The notes under the pieces: model-generated
Database searches by the model: none
What the model saw: the letters and a program-made list of their open reading frames with translations, nothing else
What the model was told of the DNA's origin: nothing
Program-made: the position numbers and the translations under genes
Shown here: in pieces, positions 37,241 through 64,000 of the stretch
How the letters are laid out: each line of letters opens with the position of its first letter
How positions within the stretch are numbered: position 1 is the first letter of the stretch
DNA from: Candidatus Nomurabacteria bacterium
GTDB taxonomy: Bacteria > Patescibacteriota > Patescibacteriia > UBA1558 > GWA2-36-10
Direction of reading: 5' to 3'
DNA: 64,000 nucleotides
Assembly (NCBI GenBank): GCA_020632415.1
Contig: JACKFO010000002.1
Location: 450,732-514,731 of the forward strand

Positions 37241-37246
37241 AAAAAA

Positions 37247-37615
37247 TTATTTTTGCACCTCTGCCTCTGGATTAGCAAAAGGATAAGAATTACCCAAATT
37301 AGTTTTGGTGTTAATAAAAGTATTTATTTCTAAATCCAAACCCTGATATTGAGGATCATCTTTTACTTTTTCCAAAATACTTTTGGCTGTGCTCTCTAAA
37401 GGAAAGTACTCCAAATTTTTTTCAGCTAAAAGTTTGATTCTTCTTATTTTAGCTTCTTGAATAATTTCGTCATTGCTTAAGGGCGCTATTTCTTTATTAT
37501 TTAATAAAGAAAAAACAAACCATGCACCAAAAATCAAAAGCACAGCAATGATTATAACGATTAAAAGATTAGATTTTTTTTCACCTTTTTCCATAATAAA
37601 ATTATTTTGCGACAA
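37247..37615 (-). CDS. Bitopic membrane protein, unknown (possible pilus assembly accessory, PilP-position)
   Basis: N-terminal TM helix then a soluble domain, between pilO-like and pilB. Confidence 0.3.
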   Translation of the reverse strand: MSQNNFIMEKGEKKSNLLIVIIIAVLLIFGAWFVFSLLNNKEIAPLSNDEIIQEAKIRRIKLLAEKNLEYFPLESTAKSILEKVKDDPQYQGLDLEINTFINTKTNLGNSYPFANPEAEVQK

Positions 37616-38276: not shown

Positions 38277-38279
38277 ATC

Positions 38280-39266: not shown

Positions 39267-39276
39267 TTATTTTTGT

Positions 39277-40479
39277 TTAAATATCACGCATTGCTAGACC
39301 AATAGAAGCGGCCATTCTTGGCCCAATTTCTTGGAGCACTGGCTTTAAATCCAAAGGATAAACTATCCTGTCCCAAGGATCACCGATGATCACGGGTAAA
39401 CCTAATAACTCTGATAAATATTTTGGTAAATTTGGTAAAAAAGAACTGCCACCAGCTAGAATAATTTTTTCAATCTGTGACTCACCTTGTCTTTGATAAA
39501 GATCAAAAACGTACTTAATTTCATTAATAATTGGGTTTAAAGAATTTTGGATTGTATTTGGCACCGAACGATTTCCTACTGTTGTTAAGCCAAAATCTCT
39601 TTTGAATTGCTCTGCTCGATCGACATTAACATTCATGCTATTCATGATCGATTTAGTGATCAGATTTCCGCCAGTATCAATGCCCCTGTTTAAAATCGGC
39701 ACGCCCTCTTCAATGACACAAACATCGGTATTATTTGCGCCGATATCAACAATCATTACGCTAGACATGTCATTGCCCATCAAAGAACGAGAAAGGGCAA
39801 AGGCTTCGGTTTCCAAACTTAATAAATTTAAATTTGTACGTTTAAAAATATCTAGATATCTAGCCACTAAATTTTTTGGAGCAGCTGTTAACAAAATTCG
39901 ATAATTTTTTGCCCCTAAAACTCCACGATTAACCACTTCCTCTACTGGACCATTTTTTTCTGCTTCTTTTTTTGCTGTCTCTTCAGCCTCTGAATCTTCC
40001 TCTGAAGAATCTTCATCTTTTGTTTTTTTACTAAAAATGCTTCCTAATTTTCCAGTTAAATCAGCGCTTGCCTTTGGATCGTTAGCGACTTCTTTTTTAT
40101 TCAAAATTTTCCAGTCCAAAATCATTTCTTCAATTGGCAAAGGAATAAATTTTTTGGCTTCCCACTTGATCGCTGAAGACAGGTCTTTTTTTGGCATGGG
40201 TGGCAAAGAAATGATCGAAGTAAAAACAGAAAAAGTTGGCAAGGCAGCAATAGCTTGTCGTGATTCAATTCTAGCTTTTTTAACAATATGCTTAATATAA
40301 TCAGCAATTAACTGATTATTTTTCTCTGTTGCAGCGGATAAAATATTAGTATTAATATCAGCGTAGCCATAGGTCTTTAGCTTTGCTTGGCCTTTATAAC
40401 TTTCTAGCTCAACAATTTTAACACTGGTTGTCCCAATATCTACACCCAAATAGCTATTTACCGTAGAAAATAATTGCAT
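39277..40479 (-). CDS. pilM: Type IV pilus assembly ATPase-fold protein PilM (actin-like), with an acidic low-complexity insertion
   Basis: LGVDIGTTSVKIVEL phosphate-1 motif, actin-like fold motifs, and an inserted DEDSSEEDSEAEETAKKEAEK segment. Confidence 0.8.
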   Translation of the reverse strand: MQLFSTVNSYLGVDIGTTSVKIVELESYKGQAKLKTYGYADINTNILSAATEKNNQLIADYIKHIVKKARIESRQAIAALPTFSVFTSIISLPPMPKKDLSSAIKWEAKKFIPLPIEEMILDWKILNKKEVANDPKASADLTGKLGSIFSKKTKDEDSSEEDSEAEETAKKEAEKNGPVEEVVNRGVLGAKNYRILLTAAPKNLVARYLDIFKRTNLNLLSLETEAFALSRSLMGNDMSSVMIVDIGANNTDVCVIEEGVPILNRGIDTGGNLITKSIMNSMNVNVDRAEQFKRDFGLTTVGNRSVPNTIQNSLNPIINEIKYVFDLYQRQGESQIEKIILAGGSSFLPNLPKYLSELLGLPVIIGDPWDRIVYPLDLKPVLQEIGPRMAASIGLAMRDI

Positions 40480-42567: not shown

Positions 42568-42611
42568 TAAAAATAAATCTTAATTTGTTTTATTATAACA
42601 TGTTTGTTAAC

Positions 42612-42644
42612 AAAATAAAAACAACCGCGTCAGACGCGGTTGTT
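42612..42644 (-). terminator. Rho-independent terminator (palindrome CAACCGCGTCAGACGCGGTTG, also present at 1111-1131)
   Basis: ACAACCGCGTC-AGA-CGCGGTTGT flanked by an A-run (a U-run on the minus strand). Confidence 0.65.
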
Positions 42645-42658
42645 TAAATTAAGTAAAT

Positions 42659-44635: not shown

Positions 44636-44742
44636 ATTTTTTATTTTTCAATAATCTCTTTTTATTATACTAAAATTTAGCAAAAATAACAAATCCAGAC
44701 AAAATAAATTACCTGGATTGTTAAAAAAATTTAAAATTTTAT

Positions 44743-46266
44743 CTAGCTAGGAAAATAAGTGCCGTTGGTACACATGCCATTAGGAAGTCCAGGAACTAAA
44801 TTCGCCCAACCGCTAGCCCCTCGACACAGACATAAAGAATTATAATTACTAAAATAATAAACAATTCCCTCTTCTCCTGCTTTACAGGATGGCGCGGAAA
44901 TTCCTCCCCTAAAATCTATGTAACTAGCATCACTATTTAAAAACAAACTGCCATCAGCATTAAGATCACTAGCGCTAAGACTAGAAGCAAAGTACCCTGC
45001 ACCATCTTTAGATACTCTAAATTTATCAAGGCCATTATTTTGCAACTTAATCAAATGTGAACCAGCGGCAGCTGAAGAAGCGTTGCCATAAATCAAATTT
45101 TCATTAGCAGCTGTTAGGCTACCACGAATTTGCAAAGAACCGTCTTTAAGATAAACATCACCTGCAAAAAAACCAGCGTAGTTATTTTTACCATTTGTAT
45201 CCTGACAATAATTATAATAGTTTGGAGAATCTCCCAAAGCAAAATCTTTGGCTCCAGACAAAGCACACAAACCAAGTCCTGCGTGAGTCAAGGTACCACC
45301 GCCATTAGAGCCGCCAGCAGCAATCAAACCGATAGTATAGGGAGTGTAATTCCCAACCGCAGCTTGAACATGGTTTGCTCCAAGTAAACTAATCACCACC
45401 CCATTTTCTATTGGCTCCTCATTAAACTCACCTCCTGGTGGCGGAATAATTGAAATTGTTCTAGCTCCTTTTGCTAAGACTCCTTGTTCACCGTAGCCAT
45501 AGACCCCAACAACATCTCCTCCGCCATAAATACCAACGTTGCCATAGCCTTGTACTCCAGCATTAACGCCATCATAGCTTGCTACACCAACAATTGGACT
45601 TAAATCATTTTCAGTTTCCACATACAATTGACCACCATTTGCTAGTAACACCATGCCGTCAAAATACCCAGCATAATCACCTGTTCCGGCGTGTCCATAA
45701 ACACCAGCTCCGCCTGGTTTATTGCTCTGACCAAAAACACCATTGCTGCCCAAGCCAAAAACTCCAGGCGTACTCAAAGTATTTGCTGTTTCGCCATAGA
45801 CCGCATAACCATTGTTAGCTTTACCATAAACTGCAATTCCGCCAGCATTATTTGCTTCAGCAAAAACCGCATAGCTTGGATTGCTACCACTATTAGTAAT
45901 CGTCTTGGAATACAAGCCGTAAGTACGCGCATTCACAGACGAATTAACCTTGCTTGCTGTCGCGCCAAAAGCCCATTTGGTTTCATTGGCATTTGCCGGA
46001 GAGCTGGTAATATCCAAAGAACCAGCGTTCATAATCAAACGATTAGCATGAATATCATTAGCATTATTAAGATTAAAACCACTAAGATCCAAATCTTCAG
46101 TTAAAGGATTTTCTAAAAAATTTAAGTCGACATTGCCTCCTGGTGGTGGAGTATCCGGATCATTATAAGTCTGCGCTAAAACTCCGGTTGATACCGCCCA
46201 AATTGTTGTCATTAACACAAAAGCCAAGGCCAAAAACAAAGCGAATATTTTTTTATCTTTTAACAT
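44743..46266 (-). CDS. Secreted Gly-rich fibre/adhesin-like protein, paralog B (start placed at MLKDKK, the signal-peptide Met)
   Basis: Signal peptide, ...AQTY, DLSGFNLNNAN motif. HAGLGLCALSGAKD...YCQDTNGKNNYAGFFAGDVYLKDGS matches paralog A. The C-terminal module is CKAGEEGIVYYFSNYNSLCLCRGASGWANL. The hairpin at 46317-46346 would sit inside the longer track ORF. Confidence 0.55.
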   Translation of the reverse strand: MLKDKKIFALFLALAFVLMTTIWAVSTGVLAQTYNDPDTPPPGGNVDLNFLENPLTEDLDLSGFNLNNANDIHANRLIMNAGSLDITSSPANANETKWAFGATASKVNSSVNARTYGLYSKTITNSGSNPSYAVFAEANNAGGIAVYGKANNGYAVYGETANTLSTPGVFGLGSNGVFGQSNKPGGAGVYGHAGTGDYAGYFDGMVLLANGGQLYVETENDLSPIVGVASYDGVNAGVQGYGNVGIYGGGDVVGVYGYGEQGVLAKGARTISIIPPPGGEFNEEPIENGVVISLLGANHVQAAVGNYTPYTIGLIAAGGSNGGGTLTHAGLGLCALSGAKDFALGDSPNYYNYCQDTNGKNNYAGFFAGDVYLKDGSLQIRGSLTAANENLIYGNASSAAAGSHLIKLQNNGLDKFRVSKDGAGYFASSLSASDLNADGSLFLNSDASYIDFRGGISAPSCKAGEEGIVYYFSNYNSLCLCRGASGWANLVPGLPNGMCTNGTYFPS

Positions 46267-46310
46267 AATTTTATTTTTATTAACTATATTATAACACAAA
46301 ACTCTCTGAA

Positions 46311-46346
46311 TAAAAAACACCGCAACTTAAATCAGTTGCGGTGTTT
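46311..46346 (-). terminator. Rho-independent terminator downstream of fibre paralog C
   Basis: Perfect 12-bp stem AACACCGCAACT-TAAATC-AGTTGCGGTGTT with a flanking A-run. Confidence 0.65.
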
Positions 46347-46362
46347 TAAAATTTAAATTATT

Positions 46363-47772
46363 TTATTTTGATGCACAAAGAGAATCTGCTTTACCATTAA
46401 CCATCGAAATCCAAGATGAACCATCGCAATAACACAAAACTTTATTTGTCTCAAAATTATAAACAATTCCATCACTTCCTGATTTACAAGCTGGCGCCTT
46501 AGAATCATCGTCGTCATTAAAATCAAAATAACTACCGTTGCTACTGCTAAAAGTAACAGGGGCTCCGCTCTTCAAGGCAATACTACCTCCTGCTGTCAAA
46601 CCAGAATTAAAAGTACTAGCGCCAGCAACAACTCCTGAAGTAAATGTTCCTTGAGTTGCTGAAATTGTGCTAGCAAAAACACCAGCACCCAAAGCAGTCA
46701 CTCTAAATTTATCTGTGCCATTATTCTGTAATCTTAATAAATGCGCAGAGTTAGAGCTTCCTGAGGGAGCATTGGCATAAATGATATTTTCACTAGAAAG
46801 CAAAGCTGTCGTTGGCTGAATTTGCATCATTCCGTCTTGATAATAATCTCCAAGCAAATGTAATTTATAACTAGGATCAACGCCAATCCCAACATCACCG
46901 CCCATGATTGCCAAAACATTATTACCCCAAATCGACGAATTAACCGAATCAGACAAGCCAATTCCAACTGAATGACTACCAGCTACTGTTAACTTGTTAC
47001 CAAAGCCAGAAGAATAATCTCCTTCTACAACAACATCATCGCCGCCTAAGGCGACCGAATAAGCTCCAGTGCCCTTAGCAGCATAGCCAAAAGAAAAAGC
47101 ATAATCTCCATCAGCAGTAGCATTTTGACCACCAGCAAAAGAATAGGCACCATTAGCATTGTTATTATTACCGATTGCTAAAGCGCCAGCAATGCCAACA
47201 GGACCAGAAAAATAACCAGCCCAACCAGAATTTCCTAAGCCATAAATTGCAGTTCCTCCAGCGTTATTAGAAACTCCAGCTACAGCATAACTACTCGCTA
47301 CTCCGCTACCCGCCACAGTTGAGGCATAAAGCCCATAAGAAGCTTGTCCTGAACCAACTACTCCTGCTGTAAAAGTCCCAGCCGAACTAGAACCAAGCGG
47401 TCCGGTAATACTTAAAGTGCTATCATCCGCTGTAATATCGATCGTCCCGTATCCAACGCCAGGAGTATGTGGCATTGTCAATGTGTTTATTTCTACACCC
47501 GAAGCATTAAAAATTCCTAAAACCTCCAAAGAAGTCGTAGCGGTTAAAGTATTCACTCTTAAATCATCAACATTGATAATATTATTATCCTCTAAATCAA
47601 CATTACCAGTTTGATCAGGAATCAAAGGAGTATTAACTCCACTATTATCCCCTGGATCTGTTGAAGGAGCTTGCCAGGCAGCCAAAACATAATTTTGAAT
47701 TAAGATTAAACTCAAAACTGAAGCTGCTAAAACTAACAAACTTAAATGCCAATTGGCTAAAACTTTTTTCAT
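46363..47772 (-). CDS. Secreted fibre/adhesin-like protein, paralog C, with YadA-head-like (Hep_Hag-type) Gly/Ala/Ser repeats. Start placed at MKKVLANW.
   Basis: Signal peptide, ...AAWQAP, DLEDNNIINVDDL motif. Repeats of the form GAYSFAGGQNATADGDYAFSFGYAAKGTGAYSVALGG resemble trimeric-autotransporter/phage-fibre head repeats. The C-terminal module is CKSGSDGIVYNFETNKVLCYCDGSSWISM. Confidence 0.55.
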   Translation of the reverse strand: MKKVLANWHLSLLVLAASVLSLILIQNYVLAAWQAPSTDPGDNSGVNTPLIPDQTGNVDLEDNNIINVDDLRVNTLTATTSLEVLGIFNASGVEINTLTMPHTPGVGYGTIDITADDSTLSITGPLGSSSAGTFTAGVVGSGQASYGLYASTVAGSGVASSYAVAGVSNNAGGTAIYGLGNSGWAGYFSGPVGIAGALAIGNNNNANGAYSFAGGQNATADGDYAFSFGYAAKGTGAYSVALGGDDVVVEGDYSSGFGNKLTVAGSHSVGIGLSDSVNSSIWGNNVLAIMGGDVGIGVDPSYKLHLLGDYYQDGMMQIQPTTALLSSENIIYANAPSGSSNSAHLLRLQNNGTDKFRVTALGAGVFASTISATQGTFTSGVVAGASTFNSGLTAGGSIALKSGAPVTFSSSNGSYFDFNDDDDSKAPACKSGSDGIVYNFETNKVLCYCDGSSWISMVNGKADSLCASK

Positions 47773-47911
47773 AATATTTTTTATCGCTAATTTAAAAACA
47801 TTAATATTATAACATAAAATAAGAAAAACTAAAATCGTGTTGCTTTTAATTAAGAAATTCACTATAATTAAAGCAGAAAAAATATAGTAAATAGCATTTA
47901 AAAATAAAAAT

Positions 47912-48433
47912 ATGTATAAAAAGATACTTTTCATTACCCTTGCTTTAGTGATCATTTTTGCTGGCATCAGTGGAATTTTGGGTTATCTCTGGCAAAATGA
48001 AAATCGAATTACAGATAACGAAACTTTCAAACTACCACCTCGACCTGATTATCTAAATCAAAAAGGAGAAAATGAACTAAAAGTCCCCGCTCTTCCTCCG
48101 GTCCCAGAACAACAAATTATTAATAACTACAGTGGTCAAATCATTGAAATTGCCGCTAACAAACTCATTCTTTCCACAAACTACGGAAATAAAACCGTTA
48201 ACTTTGATGGTCAAACTATTTTTGAAAAATTATTTGCTCCCCGAGTCCCTCAGTTACCACCTTTGCCTGGACAAACAATAGTCGAGGAAAACTCCATTCC
48301 TAACCCAGAAAAAATTACTTTAAATGATTTGCAATCTGGACAAAAAATAGAAGTTTACTCTGAAGAAAATTTAAAAAACAAAGAAGAATTTGTTGCTGAC
48401 AAAATTAGTTTAGTCATTAAATTAAATAATTAA
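47912..48433 (+). CDS. Membrane-anchored Pro-rich protein with an internal duplicated about 35-aa segment (unknown)
   Basis: N-terminal TM helix, PPRP/PPVP/PPLP motifs, and repeats SGQIIEIAANKLIL... / SGQKIEVYSEENL.... Confidence 0.35.
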   Translation: MYKKILFITLALVIIFAGISGILGYLWQNENRITDNETFKLPPRPDYLNQKGENELKVPALPPVPEQQIINNYSGQIIEIAANKLILSTNYGNKTVNFDGQTIFEKLFAPRVPQLPPLPGQTIVEENSIPNPEKITLNDLQSGQKIEVYSEENLKNKEEFVADKISLVIKLNN

Positions 48434-52504: not shown

Positions 52505-53152
52505 ATGAAGATTTTAAAAAACATCCTAGATTATATCTGGCCACAATTTTGCCTACTTTGTAAAAAAGAAGGCTTTTTGTGTTGCCCTGATTGTCAAAAT
52601 AGTTTAAAATTTTTGCCTTTAGATTATCAGGCTTGGCCAGAAGAAGACTTTACTTTTGAGCATTGTTATGTTTGTTTAGATTATCATCAAGAATTAACAC
52701 AAAAATTAATCAAAACTTTTAAGTACCAATACCTCCAAAATATCTCCGAAATTTTAATCAAGATTTTAGCTCAGCAAATCAGTCGAATCCAGTTACCGAA
52801 AAATACCCTGATCACCAATGTCCCTTTGCATAAAAAGAAAAAGCGCCAACGTGGTTTTGATCAAACAGAAATTTTGGCTCAAGGTCTAGCTAAAAAAATA
52901 AATCTCCCCTATTTAAAATTATTAAAACGACAAAAATTTACTAGCCCCCAAGCGCAGTTATCTAAAACAGAAAGACAAAAAAACGTCAGTGACGCTTTTG
53001 TGATCAATAAAAATCTAAATTTTGAGACCAATAGCACTATAATATTAATCGATGATGTAGCCACAACCGGCGCTACTTTAAACCAAGCAGCGAAAGTGTT
53101 GAAAGATAATGGTTTTCAGAAAATTATTGCCCTGACTTTGGCAAAAAATTAA
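52505..53152 (+). CDS. comFC: ComF family protein (ComFC-like phosphoribosyltransferase-domain competence protein)
   Basis: N-terminal Cys4 zinc finger (CLLCKKEGFLCCPDCQ) and a C-terminal PRTase motif ILIDDVATTGATL. Confidence 0.8.
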   Translation: MKILKNILDYIWPQFCLLCKKEGFLCCPDCQNSLKFLPLDYQAWPEEDFTFEHCYVCLDYHQELTQKLIKTFKYQYLQNISEILIKILAQQISRIQLPKNTLITNVPLHKKKKRQRGFDQTEILAQGLAKKINLPYLKLLKRQKFTSPQAQLSKTERQKNVSDAFVINKNLNFETNSTIILIDDVATTGATLNQAAKVLKDNGFQKIIALTLAKN

Positions 53153-53177: not shown

Positions 53178-53269
<92 letters not shown>

Positions 53270-53283
53270 AAATATAAATTTTA

Positions 53284-53359
53284 TGGTGTCCCCGGCAGGA
53301 GTCGAACCTGCGACCTTTTGGACCGCAACCAAACGCTCTATCCACTGAGCTACGAGGAC
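53284..53359 (-). tRNA. tRNA-Arg; anticodon reads GCG by manual folding (needs tRNAscan confirmation)
   Basis: The reverse complement reads GTCCTCGTAGCTCAGTGGATAGAGCGTTTGGTTGCGGTCCAAAAGGTCGCAGGTTCGACTCCTGCCGGGGACACCA. Anticodon stem is TTTGG/CCAAA with loop UUGCGGU. Confidence 0.75.
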
Positions 53360-53368
53360 CTATTTATC

Positions 53369-53458
53369 TGGCGGAGAGTGAGGGATTCGAACCCCCGGTC
53401 CCTTGCAGGACAACAGTTTTCAAGACTGTCGCATTCGACCACTCTGCCAACTCTCCGC
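53369..53458 (-). tRNA. tRNA-Ser (anticodon UGA), long variable arm
   Basis: The reverse complement reads GCGGAGAGTTGGCAGAGTGGTCGAATGCGACAGTCTTGAAAACTGTTGTCCTGCAAGGGACCGGGGGTTCGAATCCCTCACTCTCCGCCA. Anticodon loop is CUUGAAA. Confidence 0.85.
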
Positions 53459-54127: not shown

Positions 54128-54209
54128 ACTAAAGTTTTACAAAATATTCCAGAAAAACTGAACATTGCTTGTTCAGTTTTCTTATGCTAATTTTAAGGAA
54201 AACAAAGCC

Positions 54210-56306
54210 ATGTTGAAATTAGAAGACGAAGTCTCTATCTTGCATAAAATAGCCAAAGAAAAGAAAAAGGATTTGGCAAAAATGGACATCAAAACAATTG
54301 GTGATTTATTGTGGCACTTTCCTTTCCGCTACGATGATTTAAGTGAAGTCAAAAAAATCTCCGAGCTAGAAGCCGGCGTTTTAGCGACAGTCAAAGTGAC
54401 AGTGACCAAAATCAGAGTTTTGCGTTCTTGGAAGAAGAAAATGATGATTACCGAAATTAATGCCACAGACAACGAAGGAGAATTGCAGGCAATCTGGTTT
54501 CGTCAAAAATACGTCAGTCAGATCTTGAAAGTTGGCGATCAAATTTATCTCAATGGCAAGCCAGAAATAAAAAATAATACTTGGCTATTTAGTAGTCCAA
54601 ATTACGAAAAGGTAAAAGCCGTCAACATTCACAGCGCTCGTTTGGTGCCGATTTATCACACTAGCGGAAAATTGAGTCAAAAACAATTGAGATTTTTGAT
54701 TAATTTAGCTTTAAAACAAACCGGTGAAATTGACGATCCTCTGCCGGTCGATCTCTTAAATAAGGAAGACTATCCTTGGCTTTATCAAGCTTTGCAAAGC
54801 ATTCACTTTCCAGAAGACCAAAATGATTTCGCAATCGCTACTCAACGTCTAAAATTTCAAGAATTATTTTATTTGCAATGTAAGTATCAATTAGCCAAAA
54901 AATCATATGTGCAATATGATACTTGGCCAATGAATATTCAAGAAAAGACTTTGCAGCAGATTATGAAATCTTTACCCTTCAAACTCAGCAATGACCAAAT
55001 AAAAGTCTTGAAAGAAATTTTATTGGATCTAGAACGTGAACAGCCAATGAATCGTCTTGTTGAAGGAGATGTCGGTTCTGGTAAAACTATCGTCGCTATT
55101 TTAGCAGCTTTAAACACTATTTCCCAAAAAGAAAAACTCCAAGTTGCCTTCATGGCCCCTACCGAAATTTTAGCTTGGCAACATTTTGAAAATATTAAAA
55201 AATTACTCCCCGAAAAATATTTAGAAAAAATCGCCTTTTTAAGTAAAGACCGACAATATTTTGGCCATGACTTGATCACCAAACAAGAAGCTTTGGCAAA
55301 TATCAAATCTGCTAAGGCACAGATTGTCATCGGCACACATAGTTTGATTCAAGAAAAAATAAATTTTAAAAAATTAGCTTTGGTAATTATCGACGAACAA
55401 CACCGCTTTGGCGTCAAACAACGCCAAGCTTTAAAACAATCATCCACAGGCAGATCCGCCTCTGGCGGAAAAAATACTAGCCGGGTTCCACATCTTTTAT
55501 CTTTGACTGCTACGCCGATTCCTCGTACTTTAGCGCTAACTTTATATGGCGATTTAGACATTTCCTTGATTCAAGAAAAACCTCAAGGAAGAAAAGATGT
55601 AAAAACTTTGCTGGTTCCTGAAAGAAAACGTTTGGCTGCTTACAAATTTATTCAAGAAAAAATTGATCAAAAACAACAAGTTTTTATTATCTGTCCTTTG
55701 ATCGATGAAAGCGATAAACTTGGCTATAAGTCTGTTCAAGCTGAACACAAAAAACTAAACGAAAAAATTTTTCCTGACTTAGAGATCGGCTTATTACATG
55801 GCAAGCTAAAATCTGCTGAAAAAGAAGATCTAATGAAGCGCTTTAAAAATAACCAATTTCCAATCTTGGTTGCAACTTCAGTGATTGAAGTTGGCGTTGA
55901 TATTCCTAATGCCACGATTATGATGATCGAAAGCGCTGAACGTTTTGGTCTTTCTCAGTTACATCAATTTCGTGGTCGAGTTGGCCGAAACTCTTTGGCT
56001 AGCTGGTGCTTATTGTTTACTACTGATGACAGTCACTTAAACAAAGAAAGGCTCAAAGCTTTGGAGAAAACTAACAATGGCTTTGAGCTAGCTGAACTCG
56101 ATCTCCAATTACGCGGTAGTGGAGAAATTTTTGGCACTAAACAAACTGGCTTGTTAAAGCTAAAAATTGCTAATCTCCATGACACTAAGCTAATCAAAAA
56201 GGCCCAAGATTGGGCCAAAAAGATTGTTTATCAAGAAAAATATTTATCTAACCACCAACTCCAAAAACTACTCCTAGACTTAAAAACGGAAATGCATTTG
56301 GAATAA
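54210..56306 (+). CDS. recG: ATP-dependent DNA helicase RecG (start placed at MLKLEDE with AAGGA upstream)
   Basis: N-terminal wedge/OB region. Helicase motifs GDVGSGKTIVA, IIDEQHRFGV, LSLTATPIPRTL, QFRGRVGR. About 700 aa. Confidence 0.85.
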   Translation: MLKLEDEVSILHKIAKEKKKDLAKMDIKTIGDLLWHFPFRYDDLSEVKKISELEAGVLATVKVTVTKIRVLRSWKKKMMITEINATDNEGELQAIWFRQKYVSQILKVGDQIYLNGKPEIKNNTWLFSSPNYEKVKAVNIHSARLVPIYHTSGKLSQKQLRFLINLALKQTGEIDDPLPVDLLNKEDYPWLYQALQSIHFPEDQNDFAIATQRLKFQELFYLQCKYQLAKKSYVQYDTWPMNIQEKTLQQIMKSLPFKLSNDQIKVLKEILLDLEREQPMNRLVEGDVGSGKTIVAILAALNTISQKEKLQVAFMAPTEILAWQHFENIKKLLPEKYLEKIAFLSKDRQYFGHDLITKQEALANIKSAKAQIVIGTHSLIQEKINFKKLALVIIDEQHRFGVKQRQALKQSSTGRSASGGKNTSRVPHLLSLTATPIPRTLALTLYGDLDISLIQEKPQGRKDVKTLLVPERKRLAAYKFIQEKIDQKQQVFIICPLIDESDKLGYKSVQAEHKKLNEKIFPDLEIGLLHGKLKSAEKEDLMKRFKNNQFPILVATSVIEVGVDIPNATIMMIESAERFGLSQLHQFRGRVGRNSLASWCLLFTTDDSHLNKERLKALEKTNNGFELAELDLQLRGSGEIFGTKQTGLLKLKIANLHDTKLIKKAQDWAKKIVYQEKYLSNHQLQKLLLDLKTEMHLE

Positions 56307-56307: not shown

Positions 56308-57327
56308 CTAATTATAACATCGATGACCATCATTTTCACTCACCCAGGTTTTTAGCTCGCACTCATCGACACCATAATCTTCATTATCGCAACAATACTC
56401 TGATACGCCATCACCATTTGTATCCAACAAACATTCGCTGTTACTGCTACAATTTTTACCCTCTAAATCTGAATTTGCTGCTGGCAAACAAACATTTGCT
56501 CGCGACAAACCACATATGCTACTAAAGGTTTCTCCATTGGCCATTACTCGATTATAACAACTATTAAGTGCGCAGGCTTCCTGATCTTGAAACCGATTAT
56601 ATTCAGAGCAATTATCCAGTGTCAACTCTTGACAAGGAATCTGTCTCGCACAACTACAAGTAACATTTTCGTTGATATCAATAGCGCTCGGGCACTCTCC
56701 TATTCTATTAGATCTTTCATCATACTCCCAACATTTTGATCCAGAGGGACAACTATTATCCACACATTGCACAAAGCCAACACTAGTACTAGTTGCGTAG
56801 ACAGAGCCACAACTGTCTACAGAGCCAAATTCATTATTATTCAATGCTGCGATACACATATCCTTAGCCATGTACTTTGTCCCAATTTCTGAAATATTTA
56901 ATTTTTCAAAATTAACTAAATTACTAGAAATGCTGTTCAAAAGCAAATAACCACCAAATAGCAAAGCTAAACCAATCAAAGCTCCTCTAATCGTATCTTT
57001 AGCATTATCGATTTTTCCAGCATTACCAGAAGCAATAATCCATTGCCAAGAAGCAAAAACGATCATAAACATTGCTACGGCTCCAGCAGCTGAAGCGCCA
57101 TAGTTATATAAAGCATTAACGTAATTTCCGACTGAGTAACCATTTATTTCATAACTAACAATTTCTTTGCCAGAAGCATCTAAAACTGTTGGTGTACATT
57201 TTTTAAAAAAAGCGCTCATTCCCGGGATCTCAATGCTCGGTTTAAAACAAATCGCCGCTGAAGCTGTCGAAACAAAACCAGTAAATAAGAAAGTGGCAAA
57301 GATAATGATAAAAATTTTCTTTTTCAT
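56308..57327 (-). CDS. Secreted protein with a pilin-like (VirB2/TrbC-like) two-helix topology fused to a C-terminal Cys-rich domain
   Basis: Signal peptide (MKKKIFIIIFATFLFTGFVSTASA). Two hydrophobic helices are separated by a short polar loop (AGAVAMFMIVFASWQWIIASGNAGKIDNAKDTIRGALIGLALLFGGYLLL), then a roughly 190-aa domain with about 28 Cys. It is the last gene of the T4SS-like cluster. Confidence 0.35.
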   Translation of the reverse strand: MKKKIFIIIFATFLFTGFVSTASAAICFKPSIEIPGMSAFFKKCTPTVLDASGKEIVSYEINGYSVGNYVNALYNYGASAAGAVAMFMIVFASWQWIIASGNAGKIDNAKDTIRGALIGLALLFGGYLLLNSISSNLVNFEKLNISEIGTKYMAKDMCIAALNNNEFGSVDSCGSVYATSTSVGFVQCVDNSCPSGSKCWEYDERSNRIGECPSAIDINENVTCSCARQIPCQELTLDNCSEYNRFQDQEACALNSCYNRVMANGETFSSICGLSRANVCLPAANSDLEGKNCSSNSECLLDTNGDGVSEYCCDNEDYGVDECELKTWVSENDGHRCYN

Positions 57328-57383
57328 AACCCTATTGGAAATTTAATTAATATATTTTTTATTTACCAAAAATTTAAATTAGT

Positions 57384-58610
57384 TTATTTTAAACGAATAC
57401 TTTGTAAACTGCCGGTGTTTTGATCTGTGAAATATAAAACCGAGCCATCGGCAGAAACCTGTAAATTATAAGCTGCATAGCCTCCACTTTCTCCAACCGG
57501 ACTTGCTAACAATGTTTTGGTCCCAGTGTTTAAATCAATGTAATAAAAATTATCGGTGTAGGTATCGGCAATTTCCGGATAAAGACCAACTCCCCTTGGT
57601 AATCCCTGAGGCACTGCGCAATATAGACTATTTTCTCCACCAAAAGAGCATTTGTCAGGCCAAGTAGCTAAATTCAAGGATACTTTCAAATCTCCTAAAG
57701 CGCTGGTTTTACCACCAGTAACCCACAAATTTGGCAAATAATCTGTAGTCTCGCTATAAACACTATAAAGTAAACTATTTCCTTCTGGAGACCAAGTACT
57801 TTCAAAACCGCTACCTTGAACCACAAAAGACCTTAAATTTTCTCCGTGTAAGCCAATTGGAAAAACTTCTTGTCTTTGTAAATCATAACTTTTACGATAT
57901 AAAGCTGCTACTTGTCCGTCTGGCGAAAAACCCACTTGGACATCAGCCACTTGATCGCCCAAAGGCTCTACTAGGCTCAATCCTGAACCATCGTCATTAG
58001 CAACAACTAGCCAATTATCCTCTGCTTGCGAACCGATCCAAGCGGCGGTAATTTCCTGTCCTGATGGAGAAAAACTAAATTTTTCTAGCTCAGCTGGCAA
58101 AGTCACTTGCTTGCCAGTTCTAAAATTATACAAAACATTCATGCCGTCAGGATATTCCAAAATCGCCTTGTCGTCATTTGGAGCCCACAAAACATTTTTG
58201 ACTTGAAAAAACTTTTTATCAGTAATCAGCTCTGGCTCACCTTGAGCGTTAACTCGAAAAAACTGCTGTTTAGTTTCGTCGTAATATTTAAGTCCCTTGT
58301 CAGTCAAGTCTAAACCACCGACACTTCCTGTGCTTAATTTAGTTACTTTGGTCAAACCACCATTGGCAACATCGGAAATTTTATCAGTAAAAATATCTTG
58401 CCAACCTAATCCTTGATTAGAGTTAGTGTTTTGATTAACGATATTTGGACCCTGTTGATTAGTACCTGGTATTACTCCTCCGTTATAGTTGGTATTGTCA
58501 TTCACTAATCCTGGATCATTTGTTTTGAAAAAAACAAAATACAAAGCAAAGCCCAAGAGCAAAACTAAGATCAAAAAACTAATGACTAATAATATTTTTT
58601 TAAAATTCAT
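57384..58610 (-). CDS. Membrane-anchored beta-propeller protein (TolB/PD40-like repeats)
   Basis: N-terminal TM helix and repeated SPDG/SPSG/SPEG blade motifs (FSPSGQEITAAW, GFSPDGQVAALY, WSPEGNSLLY, VSADGSVLYF). Confidence 0.5.
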   Translation of the reverse strand: MNFKKILLVISFLILVLLLGFALYFVFFKTNDPGLVNDNTNYNGGVIPGTNQQGPNIVNQNTNSNQGLGWQDIFTDKISDVANGGLTKVTKLSTGSVGGLDLTDKGLKYYDETKQQFFRVNAQGEPELITDKKFFQVKNVLWAPNDDKAILEYPDGMNVLYNFRTGKQVTLPAELEKFSFSPSGQEITAAWIGSQAEDNWLVVANDDGSGLSLVEPLGDQVADVQVGFSPDGQVAALYRKSYDLQRQEVFPIGLHGENLRSFVVQGSGFESTWSPEGNSLLYSVYSETTDYLPNLWVTGGKTSALGDLKVSLNLATWPDKCSFGGENSLYCAVPQGLPRGVGLYPEIADTYTDNFYYIDLNTGTKTLLASPVGESGGYAAYNLQVSADGSVLYFTDQNTGSLQSIRLK

Positions 58611-58637
58611 TCCGTTAAAAATTACACATAAAAATAT

Positions 58638-59045
58638 CTATTTACCGAATAACCAATTGCTAATCACTTCCCAGCCAGCCAAAGTTACTTGCCAAGGGTC
58701 TGACAAAAAAGCAATTAAGGTGAAGAAAATCAGCATGACCAAGATAAGTAAAATTGTCAAAAAGGCCCAAATCATCACTTCCCAGCTCTCTAGCTTGATT
58801 AGCTCATTGCCCATCAAATTACCGGCAAAAAGCTGAACGCTCATAATCAAATAAGCAACAATAATCCCTACTAAAGTAGCTGCAAAAGCTGCATTAATTG
58901 TTCTAAGAATGGCTTGCTTACTTTTTTTGATTACTTCTTTCTTCAATTTATCCTTTGCTTGAGCTGCTGCCTGGGCTTTCAAGCTTTGTAAACGATCATT
59001 TTGTAAGCTTCGACTATTTTGTTGTTCTAAAGCTAACTCCGCCAT
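58638..59045 (-). CDS. Small polytopic membrane protein (2-3 TM) in the T4SS-like cluster, unknown
   Basis: N-terminal basic/coiled region followed by two or three hydrophobic helices. Confidence 0.35.
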   Translation of the reverse strand: MAELALEQQNSRSLQNDRLQSLKAQAAAQAKDKLKKEVIKKSKQAILRTINAAFAATLVGIIVAYLIMSVQLFAGNLMGNELIKLESWEVMIWAFLTILLILVMLIFFTLIAFLSDPWQVTLAGWEVISNWLFGK

Positions 59046-59048
59046 AAG

Positions 59049-59627
59049 TTATTCTTGCCAATCAACTTGATTAACTAACCATTTTTGATTTGAATTAACT
59101 AAATAAACTAAAACATCCTGATAATAAATTTTTTCTACAAGATTATTATCTGTCTCCACTCTTTGAGTGTGGACCAAAATCTTTGCTTGGCCATTTTCCT
59201 CATCTAAACTTTCTACTTCTGCTGAAAGACTCTTGGTGCTAACACCATAAAAATCTTCTCTTTGATAATTTATCTCAATACTATTAATATAGTTTTTCAT
59301 GCTATTAGTAGCTAGGGATAATAGTTGTTGTAAATTTTCTCCTTGATTATCAGTTGACCAGCTACCAAAACGAGCAACAAAAGTTTTGGCCAAATTTGCT
59401 ACTGTAAATTCAGTACTTGCTTCTTGACTCGGCGAAATTAATTCTAATTTTGGACTATCGGATTCAAAAACTGGCTGATTGTCGACAGTGTATGGGTCGT
59501 TCTTAAGGTTTTGCTGACTTTTTTGTAAGCTAAAAATTAACCACAAAATTCCAATTAAAACCAAAACTATAATGCTAATTAAAATCAATTTTTGTTTTTT
59601 ACTCAGCGAGCTAAACTTATTATTCAT
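59049..59627 (-). CDS. Bitopic membrane protein, VirB8-like topology (N-in TM plus about 160-aa extracytoplasmic domain)
   Basis: Short cytoplasmic tail, one TM (LILISIIVLVLIGILWLIF), and a C-terminal soluble domain. It lies immediately downstream of the VirB4-like ATPase. Confidence 0.3.
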   Translation of the reverse strand: MNNKFSSLSKKQKLILISIIVLVLIGILWLIFSLQKSQQNLKNDPYTVDNQPVFESDSPKLELISPSQEASTEFTVANLAKTFVARFGSWSTDNQGENLQQLLSLATNSMKNYINSIEINYQREDFYGVSTKSLSAEVESLDEENGQAKILVHTQRVETDNNLVEKIYYQDVLVYLVNSNQKWLVNQVDWQE

Positions 59628-59636
59628 AAAATTTTA

Positions 59637-61505
59637 TTATAATTCTTTTTCTAACATTGCTTCTTCAAACTCTTTTTTAGCATCCTCAATCTCTAACAAC
59701 TGTCTTGGATCGGAAGTAATGATTTGATGCTCAGCATAAGAAGCTTGTACTTTGATCGCTGCGTGTTTTGAACCAGCGAAAAATATACCCTCTCCCACTC
59801 CCGATTCTAACAATAAATATTTCTCACCATCAGTCAACATAAAAGTTTGTTGGACTAGATTGATTGACGCTGGCGATTGTTTTAATAGCAACTGCAAAGA
59901 AGAGTTGGTCACAATCGCCGATCCATATGGAGAAGTCAAAAAGTCATTAACATCCTGTGTGATGGTCGTGATGCCCAAATAATATTTACGACAACGTTTA
60001 ACCAAAGCGTACATAAACTTAGCACTATCCTCATAACGCATCATGATCCAAGCTTCGTCAACAACCAAAATTCTCTTTTTCATTTCGCTCCGAATAATAT
60101 TCCAGATGTAATTCATGATCACATACATAGCAATCGGCCTTAACTCATCTTCCAAATCACGAATACTAAAAACGACTAATTGATTATTGAGCTTGATATT
60201 GGTCGGATTGTTAAATAAGCCAGCAAAAGTACCTTCGGTGTATTTCTTGATTCTAAGTGCCATATCTTCTCCGCCTTCCATGCCTAACAAAATTTCTTCC
60301 AAATCAGACATCAATGGTGGCTCAATGGTCGAAAGATCAGAGCTAGAAGTAATGTCTTTTTTAGCATAAGTTTCAAGTAATGCCCGATCTAACAAAGAAT
60401 CCTCCGCGTGAGTTAATTCGCCAATCATCAAACGAACTAAACCTTTTAGAGTAATCACAGCACTACGCAAAATATCCTCTGCCTTGCTATCTCCAGAAAT
60501 TCCTCGTGGTAAATCAAAAGGATTTAACTTGCTTTCAGAGTTCAAAGAAACATTGATATAAGTCCCGCCAACAGCTTCGGCTAAATGCTCATATTCATTT
60601 TCTGGATCAATAATAATCACATCAGTGCCAAGCATCAAAGATCTTAAAACCTCTAGTTTAATCGCATAACTTTTTCCCGCACCAGAGGTAGCAAAAACTA
60701 CCGCATTAGCATTTTGCAAACTAAAACGATCAAACAAGATCAAGCTATTGTTATGACGATTGATTCCAAATAAAATTCCCTGATCAGAAGTCAGCTCACT
60801 TGAGACAAAAGGGAAAGATGAAGCAATTGGTGAACTATTCATGTTCGTTGCAATCATTAATTCATCGTTGCCAAGTGGTAAAGTAGAATTAAATCCTTGC
60901 TCAGTTTGAAAAAATGCTTTTCGAGAATAAATCAATTGCGTACCAAGTAGATTTTCTACTCTGTCCGTTGCTAGTTCCAGCTCATCTTTGTCTTTGCCAT
61001 AAATTGTAATATACAAACCAAATTGGAAAAATTTTTCTGTACCTTGAGATAAGCCATCTCGCAAAGCTTCGATGTCTTGTAAAGCAGTTTCGACAATCGG
61101 ATCACGCGGGGCTCCTTTTTCATGATCAGCAACGATTTGCGCTTCCATTGTACCGACTTTATTACGAAGCTGTTTTAAAACCATCGGAATATCCATTGGG
61201 TAGAAAAACATCGAAATATCCAAAACCAAACTTTCATTGATAATCGGCGCAAACCAACCGACCGAAACATAACGAGGATAAGTCATCACAAACAGAGTTC
61301 GTAAATAAAGATTATTTAAGCGCAGCAAATTACTATCTATTTCCAAAGCAGCTGGCGCGATAATATCACGCACCGAAACAACGCCTTCACGAAAAACCTT
61401 TTCCGCTTCAAGCAAAGACTTGTCCTGGGCTACTATCTTTGGGTCAATTTCCTTTTTCTTTGGCTGAGTTTGGCTATTTTGTTTTATTTTGTTAGTTTCA
61501 AACAT
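59637..61505 (-). CDS. VirB4/TrbE/CagE-family type IV secretion ATPase
   Basis: Walker A FATSGAGKSYAI. Walker B is VirB4-specific, RILVVDEAWIMM (DEAW). TQ motif GITTITQDVNDF. 622 aa. Confidence 0.8.
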   Translation of the reverse strand: MFETNKIKQNSQTQPKKKEIDPKIVAQDKSLLEAEKVFREGVVSVRDIIAPAALEIDSNLLRLNNLYLRTLFVMTYPRYVSVGWFAPIINESLVLDISMFFYPMDIPMVLKQLRNKVGTMEAQIVADHEKGAPRDPIVETALQDIEALRDGLSQGTEKFFQFGLYITIYGKDKDELELATDRVENLLGTQLIYSRKAFFQTEQGFNSTLPLGNDELMIATNMNSSPIASSFPFVSSELTSDQGILFGINRHNNSLILFDRFSLQNANAVVFATSGAGKSYAIKLEVLRSLMLGTDVIIIDPENEYEHLAEAVGGTYINVSLNSESKLNPFDLPRGISGDSKAEDILRSAVITLKGLVRLMIGELTHAEDSLLDRALLETYAKKDITSSSDLSTIEPPLMSDLEEILLGMEGGEDMALRIKKYTEGTFAGLFNNPTNIKLNNQLVVFSIRDLEDELRPIAMYVIMNYIWNIIRSEMKKRILVVDEAWIMMRYEDSAKFMYALVKRCRKYYLGITTITQDVNDFLTSPYGSAIVTNSSLQLLLKQSPASINLVQQTFMLTDGEKYLLLESGVGEGIFFAGSKHAAIKVQASYAEHQIITSDPRQLLEIEDAKKEFEEAMLEKEL

Positions 61506-62184
61506 CAGTTTCCACTTTTAATTTATTTATATCCTCCAAAGGTTGTTTTTGAAACAAATCTGGATTGTAACTATTGTAATAAAGCTCAATCAAAGCCTGT
61601 GTGTCTAAACGTTGTGAACTAAGTCCCAGAGAAGAAAGTCCAGCTTCAATAAAACTACAACGTTTATCTAATTCTGCAGCTGACTCAGCAAATCTTTTGC
61701 GACTTAATTTAATCACTTTGGCTGTTGAAAATACTGAAGATAATCTGGTCGCAAAATTTTTCTTTTTATTTCCTGCTTCACTATAAGGAACGGTAATAAA
61801 AAATTTCTTACTCATGATTTTTTCCAAGGTCAACAATTCAGAAATAAACTGCTGATAATCAGCAATCTGCATTCTTAATAATTCGTTGGTCTGTTCTTTT
61901 TCTGATTTTTTTAATTTCTCTAAATAATCATCAATATTCAACGGTCGAGATTGAACTACGACTTGTAAAGGATAATCTAAAGTATTTAAAAACCCAACAT
62001 AAGCACCAATAATAGCTTTTTGTTCATCTTCTGATTTTAAGTCAAAATTAATCGAAGAAATCAACAAAACGCCCCTAACTGTACCATCGTTCAAAATCAC
62101 CACATCATCTTGAATAGCGGCAATATCTAGATACTTTTGACTAGAATTCGCTGGCTTTGAACCGGCTAATTTTTTATTCTTCAT
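61498..62184 (-). CDS. Hypothetical 228-aa soluble protein translationally coupled to the VirB4-like gene (8-nt overlap). Possibly a detached VirB4 N-terminal domain.
   Basis: The stop TGA overlaps the downstream ATG (ATGTTTGA). No TM segments and no identifiable motif. Confidence 0.4.
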   Translation of the reverse strand: MKNKKLAGSKPANSSQKYLDIAAIQDDVVILNDGTVRGVLLISSINFDLKSEDEQKAIIGAYVGFLNTLDYPLQVVVQSRPLNIDDYLEKLKKSEKEQTNELLRMQIADYQQFISELLTLEKIMSKKFFITVPYSEAGNKKKNFATRLSSVFSTAKVIKLSRKRFAESAAELDKRCSFIEAGLSSLGLSSQRLDTQALIELYYNSYNPDLFQKQPLEDINKLKVETDV

Positions 62185-62187
62185 AAA

Positions 62188-62646
62188 CTATTTATAATTA
62201 ACCTTATTTACTCGGTTAGCAAGCTTCTCACCTTTATAGACGCCTCCAGTATCAATAATCAAAGATAATTCTGAAAGTTTGCTACTAGGCAATAATCTTT
62301 TTGGTTTAATATAAACATCTCTTTGATTTTCATTTTTTGATTTGAACTCTTCAGTTCTGATGTTTTGTTTCTGCCAAATTCTAATTTTTGGTCTTAAGGC
62401 GCTGTTTAAAAAATTAACAAAAAATAAATGAAAAGGCGCGCCATTAACTTTGACAAAAGCAAACAACAAAGTGAAAGCGACGATTAAAAAAGCCTCTAAA
62501 ATAAATAAAGTAAAATCTGCTAATTTATAAGCTGCAAAAATAAACAAAGCGCCAACGACCACAATGATAAATTGCCTGACTGTTACTGGTCCAAAGATTT
62601 TATCTTCGGCGTCAATAAATTGTGGAACAATAAAACGCTGATCCAT
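62188..62646 (-). CDS. Small two-TM membrane protein with a basic C-terminus (VirB3-like position upstream of VirB4)
   Basis: 152 aa with two adjacent hydrophobic helices (FIIVVVGALFIFAAY..., FTLFILEAFLIVAFTLLFAF). Confidence 0.35.
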   Translation of the reverse strand: MDQRFIVPQFIDAEDKIFGPVTVRQFIIVVVGALFIFAAYKLADFTLFILEAFLIVAFTLLFAFVKVNGAPFHLFFVNFLNSALRPKIRIWQKQNIRTEEFKSKNENQRDVYIKPKRLLPSSKLSELSLIIDTGGVYKGEKLANRVNKVNYK

Positions 62647-62647
62647 A

Positions 62648-64000
62648 TTAAAACCTTAAATTCTTATTCAGATCAGAAATTGCTGAAAACTCTTCGACTG
62701 TTAATGTTTCTTGATTACTATCAAGTTTATTTTTGATAATTGAAGCTACTTCTTTTCCTTGAGCCAAACTCTCTTCTCCTAAAGATAAATAATGACCGTA
62801 AACAGGACTATTACGCCAAGCCTCTATCCCTTGAGCTTTCTTGGTCACCGAATCTTTTTCCAAAAGATTAATCTTAGAAAAAAGTTTAGCAATTTGCTCT
62901 GAAGGAGAATTTCCTAAATGACGAAAATTTTCTAAACTTAAATTTTGCAATTCTTCAATCGGTCCGGTTAAATTTACCTGGCGTTTTGGTGGAACAGGCA
63001 TTGACAAGTCTGCTTCGTTTGTTTGAGCATTTTCTTTGCTAGTCACATCGCTTAATTGTTTTTTGGCCAGATTTGCTTTTGGTCGAAAAACTTTTGGTAA
63101 AGACTCTAGTTCTACTGGTGCCTCTTCTTTTTCAATCGGCAAATCCTCTGCCTTCTGTTTTTCTGGCTCCTTTATTTCTTCTTCTGAGCTCTTATTTGCC
63201 TTGTCATCTTGAGCCTCACTAACAGGAGCTTCCATGTTTGGAGAAGCAATTTCTTCAGCTGAATCGTCTTCAACTTCATCTTTTTTTTCTTCTTGGCCTT
63301 GATTTAAATCAGACAAAATATTTTCAATTTCTCCTTGCGTTGCTTCAACGCCTATTTTTTCTTCCTCATCTTTTTCTGGATTTTCTTCTGAAATTTCTGC
63401 GTTTAACTCTTTTTCTAATTCTTCAACTGGACTAGTTGGTAAACCAGAATGTAAATCTGCAACCGCTTTTGATAGATCTTCAGCTAACTCTGGTTGTTCT
63501 GCTTGAACATCGTTATTTTTCTGCGCAGCTTTCAAATCCTCTGCTTTGACTACCAGACCGCCGGCTTGATCAATGTCATTTTTAATCGTCTTGATAATCG
63601 AAACTAGACTATTTACAGTTTCTTCTGACAAAACTTTTTCTCCTTCAAAAACATTTTCTGATAAATTTTCTCGAACAATAATAGCATTTTTACGATTCCT
63701 AAAAAAATCAAAAATAATCTGAGAAAACTTGGCCTTCATTGCTAAATCCAATTTTAACTTATGACCTGAGATTAATTTGTCAATAATTTTCTCCAAACTA
63801 TACTTTTTGCTATCGTCCTGTGGTAAATTTTTAGCCAAAAGCTCAACTTCTTTTTGGTCATCCGGATGAAAAGAAAAGTGAGCCAAATCTTGATCATTGT
63901 GATCAGAATTTTGCTCTGCGGCTAAAAAATGATCATCTTCGGGCACTTTTGCCTCTTGGGCCACCTGACTTGCTGGTTTAACTATCGAAGTATCAAAAAT
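62648..64000 (-). CDS. Acidic, E/K/D-rich low-complexity protein, N-terminally partial (frame open to the window end)
   Basis: The 438+ aa ORF continues without a stop to position 64000. It is highly charged and probably disordered or coiled. Confidence 0.4.
   Translation of the reverse strand: MFDTSIVKPASQVAQEAKVPEDDHFLAAEQNSDHNDQDLAHFSFHPDDQKEVELLAKNLPQDDSKKYSLEKIIDKLISGHKLKLDLAMKAKFSQIIFDFFRNRKNAIIVRENLSENVFEGEKVLSEETVNSLVSIIKTIKNDIDQAGGLVVKAEDLKAAQKNNDVQAEQPELAEDLSKAVADLHSGLPTSPVEELEKELNAEISEENPEKDEEEKIGVEATQGEIENILSDLNQGQEEKKDEVEDDSAEEIASPNMEAPVSEAQDDKANKSSEEEIKEPEKQKAEDLPIEKEEAPVELESLPKVFRPKANLAKKQLSDVTSKENAQTNEADLSMPVPPKRQVNLTGPIEELQNLSLENFRHLGNSPSEQIAKLFSKINLLEKDSVTKKAQGIEAWRNSPVYGHYLSLGEESLAQGKEVASIIKNKLDSNQETLTVEEFSAISDLNKNLRF

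Follow-up and report, generated by a model that had tools for sequence, protein, structure and literature searches.

The mating-pair-formation class of type IV secretion systems (T4SS) of monoderm bacteria and archaea is known as MPF-FATA. The gene cluster considered here occupies positions 56308-64000 of a 64,000-nucleotide stretch of DNA from Candidatus Nomurabacteria bacterium (assembly GCA_020632415.1, contig JACKFO010000002.1, positions 450,732 to 514,731; the whole stretch is called the window below). It is built around a VirB4 ATPase and very probably represents the published chromosomal T4SS of Patescibacteria, which stems from MPF-FATA and is devoid of relaxase and coupling protein, in the arrangement of the class ABY1. 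Quinonero-Coronel et al. (2025, Microb Genom; PMC12102498) described the VirB4 proteins of Patescibacteria as a monophyletic clade within MPF-FATA; TrsD and PrgI were abundant, VirB6 and VirB2-like pilins of family PF18895 were present, and VirB8 was detected almost only in ABY1. In this survey, relaxases occurred in ~100 of 3,035 genomes and stood near virB4 in only 15 of ~2,400 genomes, coupling-protein homologues mostly lay far from the T4SS, and the T4SS neighbours were comF, recG and radA in ABY1, the systems of other classes being located near dnaA and dnaN. Wang et al. (2023, Cell; PMC10633639) found the T4SS and its pilins to be essential in S. epibionticum (SEML1_0006-0019), where PrgI (0010), 0009 and VirB4 (0008) follow each other in this order. 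The role of the T4SS was called 'completely unknown' in PMC11665869, with import raised as a candidate, and effector delivery or nucleic-acid import has been offered in reviews; competence of S. epibionticum depends on ComEC, and deletion of comEC is viable (PMC12857230).

The eight co-directional minus-strand genes proposed in an initial annotation of the window are all present as open reading frames (ORFs) at the same positions, tightly packed, with gaps of 1, 3, -8, 9, 3, 27 and 56 nt from the gene of an acidic protein (ACID) to that of a pilin-like protein. The synteny comparison with other Patescibacteria suggested there was carried out on 80 genome loci, and the order ACID, PrgI, TrsD, VirB4, VirB8-like is kept in 74-80 of them. 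The inner-membrane core of a T4SS is complete in the window with the exception of VirB6, whose gene is expected just outside. As a core of this kind is known to be near-universal in the ultra-small Patescibacteria (Candidate Phyla Radiation, CPR), the locus does not represent a system of a new kind.

The VirB4 ATPase body (622 aa, 59637..61505, minus strand) scores 348.9 bits against NF045971 (conju_CD1110), the NCBIfam family of Gram-positive conjugative VirB4, and passes the curated cutoff of 325, the match spanning model positions 178-730 of 752; PF19044 is matched with E 5.5e-29. All three motifs reported earlier could be located, GAGKS at residue 275, DEAW at 483 and TQ as TQD at 516. The preceding gene encodes a TrsD-like protein (228 aa, 61498..62184, minus strand), which matches NF041427 (TrsD/TraD) with E 7.9e-10, under the curated cutoff of 200 bits, and which the precomputed Pfam annotation places in PF26593 (TraC-like). 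Its alignments to full-length VirB4 models cover positions 13-124 and 91-255, at the N-terminal end in three of these models, and it also aligns to TrsD/TraD of pGO1-type plasmids. Since the ATPase body covers only the later part of its model and the 228-aa protein aligns to the VirB4 N-terminus, VirB4 is split in two. The 8-nt overlap of both genes, via ATGTTTGA, stands as first described; the smaller protein, earlier left without a name, is no unknown partner but the detached, TrsD-like N-terminal domain of VirB4. This protein has an ORF of its own in 78-80 of the 80 loci, mostly with a TAATG or similar overlap, or with a spacing below 10 nt. The protein in the VirB3 position (152 aa, 62188..62646, minus strand), for which two transmembrane (TM) segments had been predicted, indeed has two, at 16-72, and passes the Pfam cutoff of the PrgI family (PF12666, 40.3 bits, cutoff 27); a PrgI-like protein takes the same position in 79 of the 80 loci.

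The VirB4 of the window shows 100% identity to an NCBI protein from an 842-kb contig of a Candidatus Nomurabacteria bacterium and 70-92% identity to hundreds of proteins of Patescibacteria (Komeili-, Falkow-, Veblen- and others). The nearest VirB4 proteins among 72,556 plasmids, with 28-37% identity, all belong to Firmicutes or Actinobacteria; one of them carries a CD1110 family annotation. Judged by these identities, the protein groups with the VirB4 of Patescibacteria, apart from that of mobile elements. A weak similarity to CedB was recorded (E 3.6e-13; 49 bits, cutoff 700); for the CedD profile the score was 20 (cutoff 600).

Directly after virB4 follows the gene of a bitopic protein (192 aa, 59049..59627, minus strand) with one N-terminal TM helix, a linker and an NTF2-like domain, for which the VirB8 fold is predicted, in agreement with the VirB8 topology first noted; the VirB8 identity came from fold comparison alone. 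When the VirB8-like, acidic, propeller and VirB6-like families were compared as profiles with PDB sequences, no meaningful match emerged. The VirB8 fold assignment is strong and extends to nearly every examined locus, which goes beyond the published papers. The next protein (135 aa, 58638..59045, minus strand) has a charged N-terminus, and its description as a small polytopic protein holds as far as the membrane location is concerned, the number of TM segments being two, perhaps three. No family match above cutoff was obtained for it; clear homologues are confined to the closest clade (9-10 loci), and a remote relationship exists to the protein in the same position of another clade (hhalign, 94%).

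A VirB6-like candidate of 800-1100 aa is encoded upstream in 42 of the 80 loci, in genomes whose upstream sequence is long enough. In these relatives it has a signal peptide, 6-7 TM segments and a long coiled C-terminus. The match to TrbL (PF04610) is weak, with E 0.035 for one member and E ≤ 0.01 for 3 of 36 members. No such gene lies in the window, and the source genome is known only to 2.6 kb past its edge. In many remoter relatives (L013-L066) the VirB6-like gene is preceded by that of a ~200-aa protein with 2-3 TM segments (family c13), and in many also by genes of very large Cys-rich secreted proteins of 700-1150 aa (families c14 and c31); neither has a Pfam match.

At the upstream end of the cluster stands the acidic protein (62648..64000, minus strand), of whose 489 aa the C-terminal 450 are encoded in the window. 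Its frame is open to position 64000, as had been recognized, and comparison with the full protein (P0155) places 39 residues outside. It has no TM segment and contains 95 Asp plus Glu residues; the model shows two helical domains with a disordered acidic linker between them. In relatives with enough upstream sequence a second ACID paralogue is encoded further upstream, with the N-terminal domain in common (hhalign, 96%), so that a pair of acidic proteins is found between the VirB6-like gene and PrgI. The family has no structural relative in the PDB. It is apparently a conserved, unannotated, cytoplasmic component of the T4SS, an aspect that goes beyond the published papers, and one may speculate that the acidic two-domain protein acts as a cytoplasmic adaptor or substrate-docking factor.

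The chromosomal setting of the cluster is conserved. The gene of the RecG helicase (54165..56306, plus strand), convergent with the cluster and found in 48 of the 80 loci, and that of a ComF-type phosphoribosyltransferase (52505..53152, plus strand; PF00156 plus a double zinc ribbon) are the downstream neighbours in the window; both are conserved neighbours and no parts of the T4SS. Among the 67 loci informative on this side, 46 have radA, on the same strand, as the first gene past the downstream end of the T4SS block, 9 have comF and 8 recG, such that the block adjoins one of the three in 63 genomes. On the other side, the clade of the window (L002, L004-L012, L081) has rpsF-ssb-rpsR-efp and an opposite-strand methyltransferase gene between the two ACID genes, by which the T4SS cluster is split in two by housekeeping genes. 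Beyond position 64000, where the initial annotation had recommended looking for relaxase, VirD4 and integrase, the available 2.6 kb of the source organism encode efp, rpsR, ssb and rpsF, arranged as in the clade, and none of the three. In G+C content (0.34-0.37) the cluster does not differ from its flanks or from the rest of the window. Furthermore, the identity of RecG to that of the window correlates with the identity of VirB4 (Spearman 0.65), with medians of 45% for RecG and 72% for VirB4. The higher identity of VirB4 and the correlation are compatible with long vertical inheritance under strong selection, and a degenerate relic was rejected because VirB4 is more conserved than RecG.

Relaxase, VirD4 and integrase are likewise missing among the 32 scanned ORFs of the window, which comprise every ORF of 280 aa or more and leave aside shorter ones upstream of 50 kb; this is in keeping with what was seen at first reading. 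The scanned ORFs include Mfd, LigA, GatA/B, ThyX-like, MiaA, MiaB-like, type IV pilus (T4P), TPR and glycosyltransferase proteins, and several unassigned ones. The scan likewise returned no coupling protein of VirD4 or TcpA type; besides VirB4, the secretion ATPases of the window are all of PilB or PilT type. In the relatives, the ten large unclustered ORFs scanned within 10 kb of virB4 turned out to be ordinary chromosomal genes, with no relaxase or VirD4 among them. Taken together, the conserved position, the housekeeping genes inside the block, the flank-like G+C content and the lack of relaxase, VirD4 and integrase in the regions covered bear out the earlier proposal of a chromosomal, non-conjugative T4SS-like machine.

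The last gene of the cluster encodes a protein of 339 aa (56308..57327, minus strand) which consists of a signal peptide, a VirB2-like two-helix pilin hairpin and a Cys-rich domain of 189 aa. Signal peptide and two hydrophobic helices agree with the original description; the number of Cys residues is 22 instead of about 28, with 20 of them within the last 189 residues. The window protein scores 25.1 bits against PF18895 (cutoff 26.6) and matches the pilin-like family NF045849 with E 6.7e-4. Of the 31 aligned members of its family, 26 match PF18895 with E ≤ 0.001 (best 1.6e-9), and one matches TrbC/VirB2. The C-terminal heads vary within the family: VanY/M15 peptidases (5 cases), SLT lytic transglycosylases (2), 3D, C39 and Cys-rich domains were found. 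Fusions of the hairpin to VanY/Peptidase_M15, SLT, 3D or Peptidase_C39_2 stand downstream of the virB8-like gene in eight loci (L006, L008, L009, L010, L048, L070, L077, L078), and in several such loci a hydrolase-headed and a Cys-rich-headed paralogue stand in tandem. According to these domain assignments, the pilin hairpin serves as an N-terminal module to which different C-terminal heads are joined, a point not contained in the published papers. The hydrolase-headed fusions may substitute for VirB1, which could explain the VirB1 activity missing in the survey.

The Cys-rich domain of the window appears to be fast-evolving, as phmmer recognized it in three close relatives only; a relationship to the giant Cys-rich secreted proteins of the relatives was rejected, the three close orthologues being all that this search returned. 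A DsbA-like thioredoxin is often encoded between the propeller described below and the pilin fusion in relatives. The window has a DsbA-like thioredoxin gene at 19013-19780 (minus strand), 37 kb from the cluster, whose product is 31% identical to that of the relatives' gene. A promoter and terminator scan was uninformative on the operon borders. There is a perfect sigma-70 consensus (TTGACA, 18 nt, TATAAT) at 56596-56625 (minus strand), within the 3' part of the pilin-Cys-rich gene, and a terminator-like hairpin at 56201-56216 (minus strand), ~90 nt past the stop codon of this gene and within the 3' end of the convergent recG.

Between the small membrane protein and the pilin fusion the cluster encodes a β-propeller of PD40/TolB type (408 aa, 57384..58610, minus strand) with one N-terminal TM segment. 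The PD40 signal of the window protein is 19.7 bits (cutoff 20.9), and PD40 repeats were recognized in 15 of the 26 members of the family (best E 3.8e-8), with matches of others to other propeller families; the membrane-anchored PD40/TolB-like propeller postulated earlier can thus be retained. A search against PDB sequences was negative even when a profile was used. The family is compact, with ~201 clusters at E ≤ 1e-30, the 150 best listed measuring about 400-430 aa except for a few shorter ones. A propeller is present in 26 of the 80 VirB4-anchored loci. Conversely, in a search anchored on the propeller, VirB4 lay within 8 kb in 19 of 35 informative loci, and the status of the propeller as a T4SS subunit is uncertain for this reason; it may be a neighbour instead. 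In the VirB4-less loci inspected, the propeller gene mostly stands divergent beside a T4P operon (PilM, PilB, PilC, N-methyl pilin), with ComF next to it on the following side, or else DsbA, pilin fusion and RadA; in some relatives the T4P operon directly adjoins the propeller gene. The module of propeller and pilin fusion is tied to T4P and ComF/RadA about as often as to VirB4, again beyond the published papers, and the propeller belongs to a wider neighbourhood joining T4P, competence/recombination genes and T4SS.

The window carries the same neighbourhood, spread over 40 kb. Its T4P cluster (23586-40479, minus strand) comprises PilM (39277-40479), a PilB-type ATPase (35498-37240), a PilT-like ATPase (34036-35106), PilC/T2SSF (32792-34006) and a PilX_N protein (23586-24440), all on the minus strand and with several small ORFs between the main genes. 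Next to it, at 40600-47967 (minus strand), are four large ORFs of secreted proteins (655, 658, 525 and 534 aa), none of which matches Pfam at 1e-5. Three of them have the C-terminal motif G(I/M)VYxF..N.LC.C.G..W in common, and the stretch is the only one with raised G+C content (0.40 versus 0.35). These proteins may be surface proteins or adhesins. Other items of the window are three tRNA genes (Ser-GCT, Arg-GCG, Ser-TGA) at 53180-53456 (minus strand), between comF and a 178-aa gene upstream of recG, with no sign of use as an integration site; a tmRNA gene at 15996-16381 (plus strand); and a Thy1/ThyX-domain protein of 450 aa (7757-9109, minus strand), about twice the 191 residues of the Thy1 Pfam profile.

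From these components a working scheme may be drawn for the Patescibacteria T4SS. It very probably descends from a monoderm conjugation machinery of MPF-FATA type and has lost the DNA-processing half, i.e. relaxase and coupling protein. By analogy with the R388 and pKM101 structures and with Gram-positive systems, PrgI and TrsD might tether VirB4 hexamers to the membrane, and the VirB8-like protein, together with the extended VirB6-like protein presumably encoded just past the window edge, might form the membrane channel. On the same grounds, VirB4 could extract the pilin-hairpin proteins from the membrane, to yield a surface filament or displayed extracellular domains. The machine would then move macromolecules at the contact with the host cell, as suggested by Saccharibacteria genetics, where the T4SS is essential for growth on the host.

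Several points weigh against the assignment to the published Patescibacteria T4SS of ABY1 type. The VirB6-like gene of the source genome is deduced from relatives, and the lack of relaxase and VirD4 refers to the scanned ORFs, the rest of the 842-kb contig being unsearched. The pilin and PD40 matches of the window proteins fall just under the Pfam cutoffs, and a gene for a VirB1-type hydrolase is not in the window cluster. In addition, the probable function is extrapolated from another class, Saccharimonadia, and the source organism is assigned to ABY1 from its closest relatives and the gene context.

The propeller leads to an alternative that has a real, if lesser, chance of being correct, namely that the T4SS consists of the five core genes from ACID to the VirB8-like protein only, and that the two-TM protein, the propeller and the pilin-Cys-rich protein constitute an independent envelope module, for example for T4P or competence. 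The counts given above, 19 of 35 loci with VirB4 nearby and 26 of 80 with a propeller, would fit this possibility, as would the position of the VirB4-less propeller, mostly divergent beside PilM, PilB and PilC and ahead of either ComF or the series DsbA, pilin fusion and RadA, and the widening of the gaps to 27 and 56 nt at the propeller/pilin end of the cluster. The hairpin, however, is a pilin of T4SS type (PF18895/TrbC) without the type IV N-methyl motif, and such pilins need a VirB4 machine. Moreover, the clade of the window keeps the three genes co-directional and contiguous with virB8-like in every sufficiently long locus.

The system might also be a device for nucleic-acid import, comparable to ComB or Ced, in which DNA or RNA of the host or medium is passed on to ComF, RadA and RecG, to serve recombination or nucleotide salvage, with the nearby type IV pilus as a partner. 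The linkage to radA, comF, recG and T4P favours nucleic-acid import to some degree: one of the three genes opens the downstream flank in the proportions reported (46, 9 and 8 of 67), the propeller/pilin-fusion module has T4P plus comF or radA on its flanks also in loci without a nearby VirB4, and the window has its own T4P cluster at 23.6-40.5 kb. The weak similarity of VirB4 to CedB and the lack of relaxase and coupling protein in the regions covered point in the same direction, as do the candidate role put forward in PMC11665869 and the gene neighbourhood reported in PMC12102498. On the other hand, all loci come from one class, and the linkage to radA and comF may therefore simply reflect an order of genes that was inherited; other classes have the T4SS near dnaA and dnaN (PMC12102498). 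The CedB score is far under the scores of the conjugative VirB4 families. Finally, since S. epibionticum tolerates the deletion of comEC while its T4SS is essential (PMC12857230), DNA uptake through ComEC is not what makes the T4SS essential in that species. Import is possible but rather unlikely.

More doubtful still is a wider proposal, in which the portable VirB2-type hairpin with interchangeable heads (M15/VanY, lytic transglycosylase, 3D, C39, Cys-rich adhesin-like), the anchored propeller and the DsbA-like protein would form a hitherto undescribed surface module common to the T4SS and to T4P/ComF/RadA, the entire super-locus would serve to breach the wall of the host and take in nucleic acid, and the acidic pair would replace the coupling protein. 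An integrative conjugative element or its remnant, with relaxase, VirD4 and integrase just outside the window, would agree with the conjugative family (CD1110) of VirB4, the three tRNA genes 2.8 kb from the cluster end and an upstream boundary beyond the window, but it is very improbable and was rejected in view of the fixed chromosomal position and gene order in 80 genomes, the housekeeping genes inside and around the block, including efp, rpsR, ssb and rpsF in the 2.6 kb past the edge, the separation of the tRNAs from the cluster by recG and the conserved 178-aa gene (both syntenic), the flank-like G+C content, the divergence of VirB4 that tracks that of RecG, the absence of relaxase, VirD4 and integrase in the regions covered, and the mere 15 of ~2,400 genomes with a relaxase near virB4 (PMC12102498).

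The preferred assignment, a chromosomal Patescibacteria T4SS of ABY1 type, concerns a machine that is essential in the one Patescibacteria species open to genetics and whose role has been called completely unknown. The locus gives handles on the ABY1 version: the VirB8-fold subunit, of interest because VirB8 was scarce in surveys, the acidic pair, the fusions of the pilin with hydrolase or Cys-rich heads, and the propeller. The presence of the propeller beside the T4SS in some genomes and beside T4P/competence genes in others bears on the question whether these machines cooperate in taking host material, and the accessory module of propeller and pilin fusion is the part worth following.

A comparison with known systems starts with the Gram-positive conjugative T4SS. 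Compared with pGO1/pSK41 (TrsC-TrsD-TrsE), pIP501 (TraC-TraD-TraE) and MPF-FATA in general, the present locus has no relaxase, type IV coupling protein (T4CP), oriT context or VirB1-type hydrolase. It contains a VirB2-like pilin, which is lacking in Gram-positive systems, its VirB4 is 28-37% identical to theirs, and it is chromosomal and, as it appears, vertically inherited. ComB of H. pylori and archaeal Ced resemble it as VirB4-based systems without relaxase and without conjugative export, and the link of the present cluster to competence/recombination genes adds to this likeness. ComB differs by its outer-membrane parts VirB7, VirB9 and VirB10, and in the case of Ced the similarity to CedB is weak (49 bits, cutoff 700). 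With TolB/PD40 propellers the propeller family shares the PD40 repeats (15 of 26 members) and the extracytoplasmic location; unlike TolB, it sits on an N-terminal TM anchor in a monoderm organism and has no Tol-Pal partners.

Within the Patescibacteria, S. epibionticum offers the closest genetic reference. Where it has an array of six short pilins, the locus has one pilin-Cys-rich fusion; its NTF2-like protein is non-essential, whereas a VirB8-fold protein directly follows VirB4 here; and in contrast to S. epibionticum, no lysozyme or peptidase genes occur downstream. A text search of PMC10633639 and PMC12102498 found no mention of the acidic pair or the propeller, the T4SS rows of S. epibionticum contain no propeller, and no mention of a pilin-like protein with a Cys-rich tail was found in the T4SS papers searched. 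The features in common with the T4SS of the Patescibacteria clade are the same order of PrgI, TrsD-like protein and VirB4 as in S. epibionticum, a pilin of PF18895, a putative extended VirB6-like protein encoded upstream in relatives, the lack of a relaxase or a nearby coupling protein, and the chromosomal location in a neighbourhood of comF, recG and radA, as reported for ABY1. By this match with the system of PMC10633639 and PMC12102498, the interpretation given in the initial annotation was right, and the system itself had already been published.

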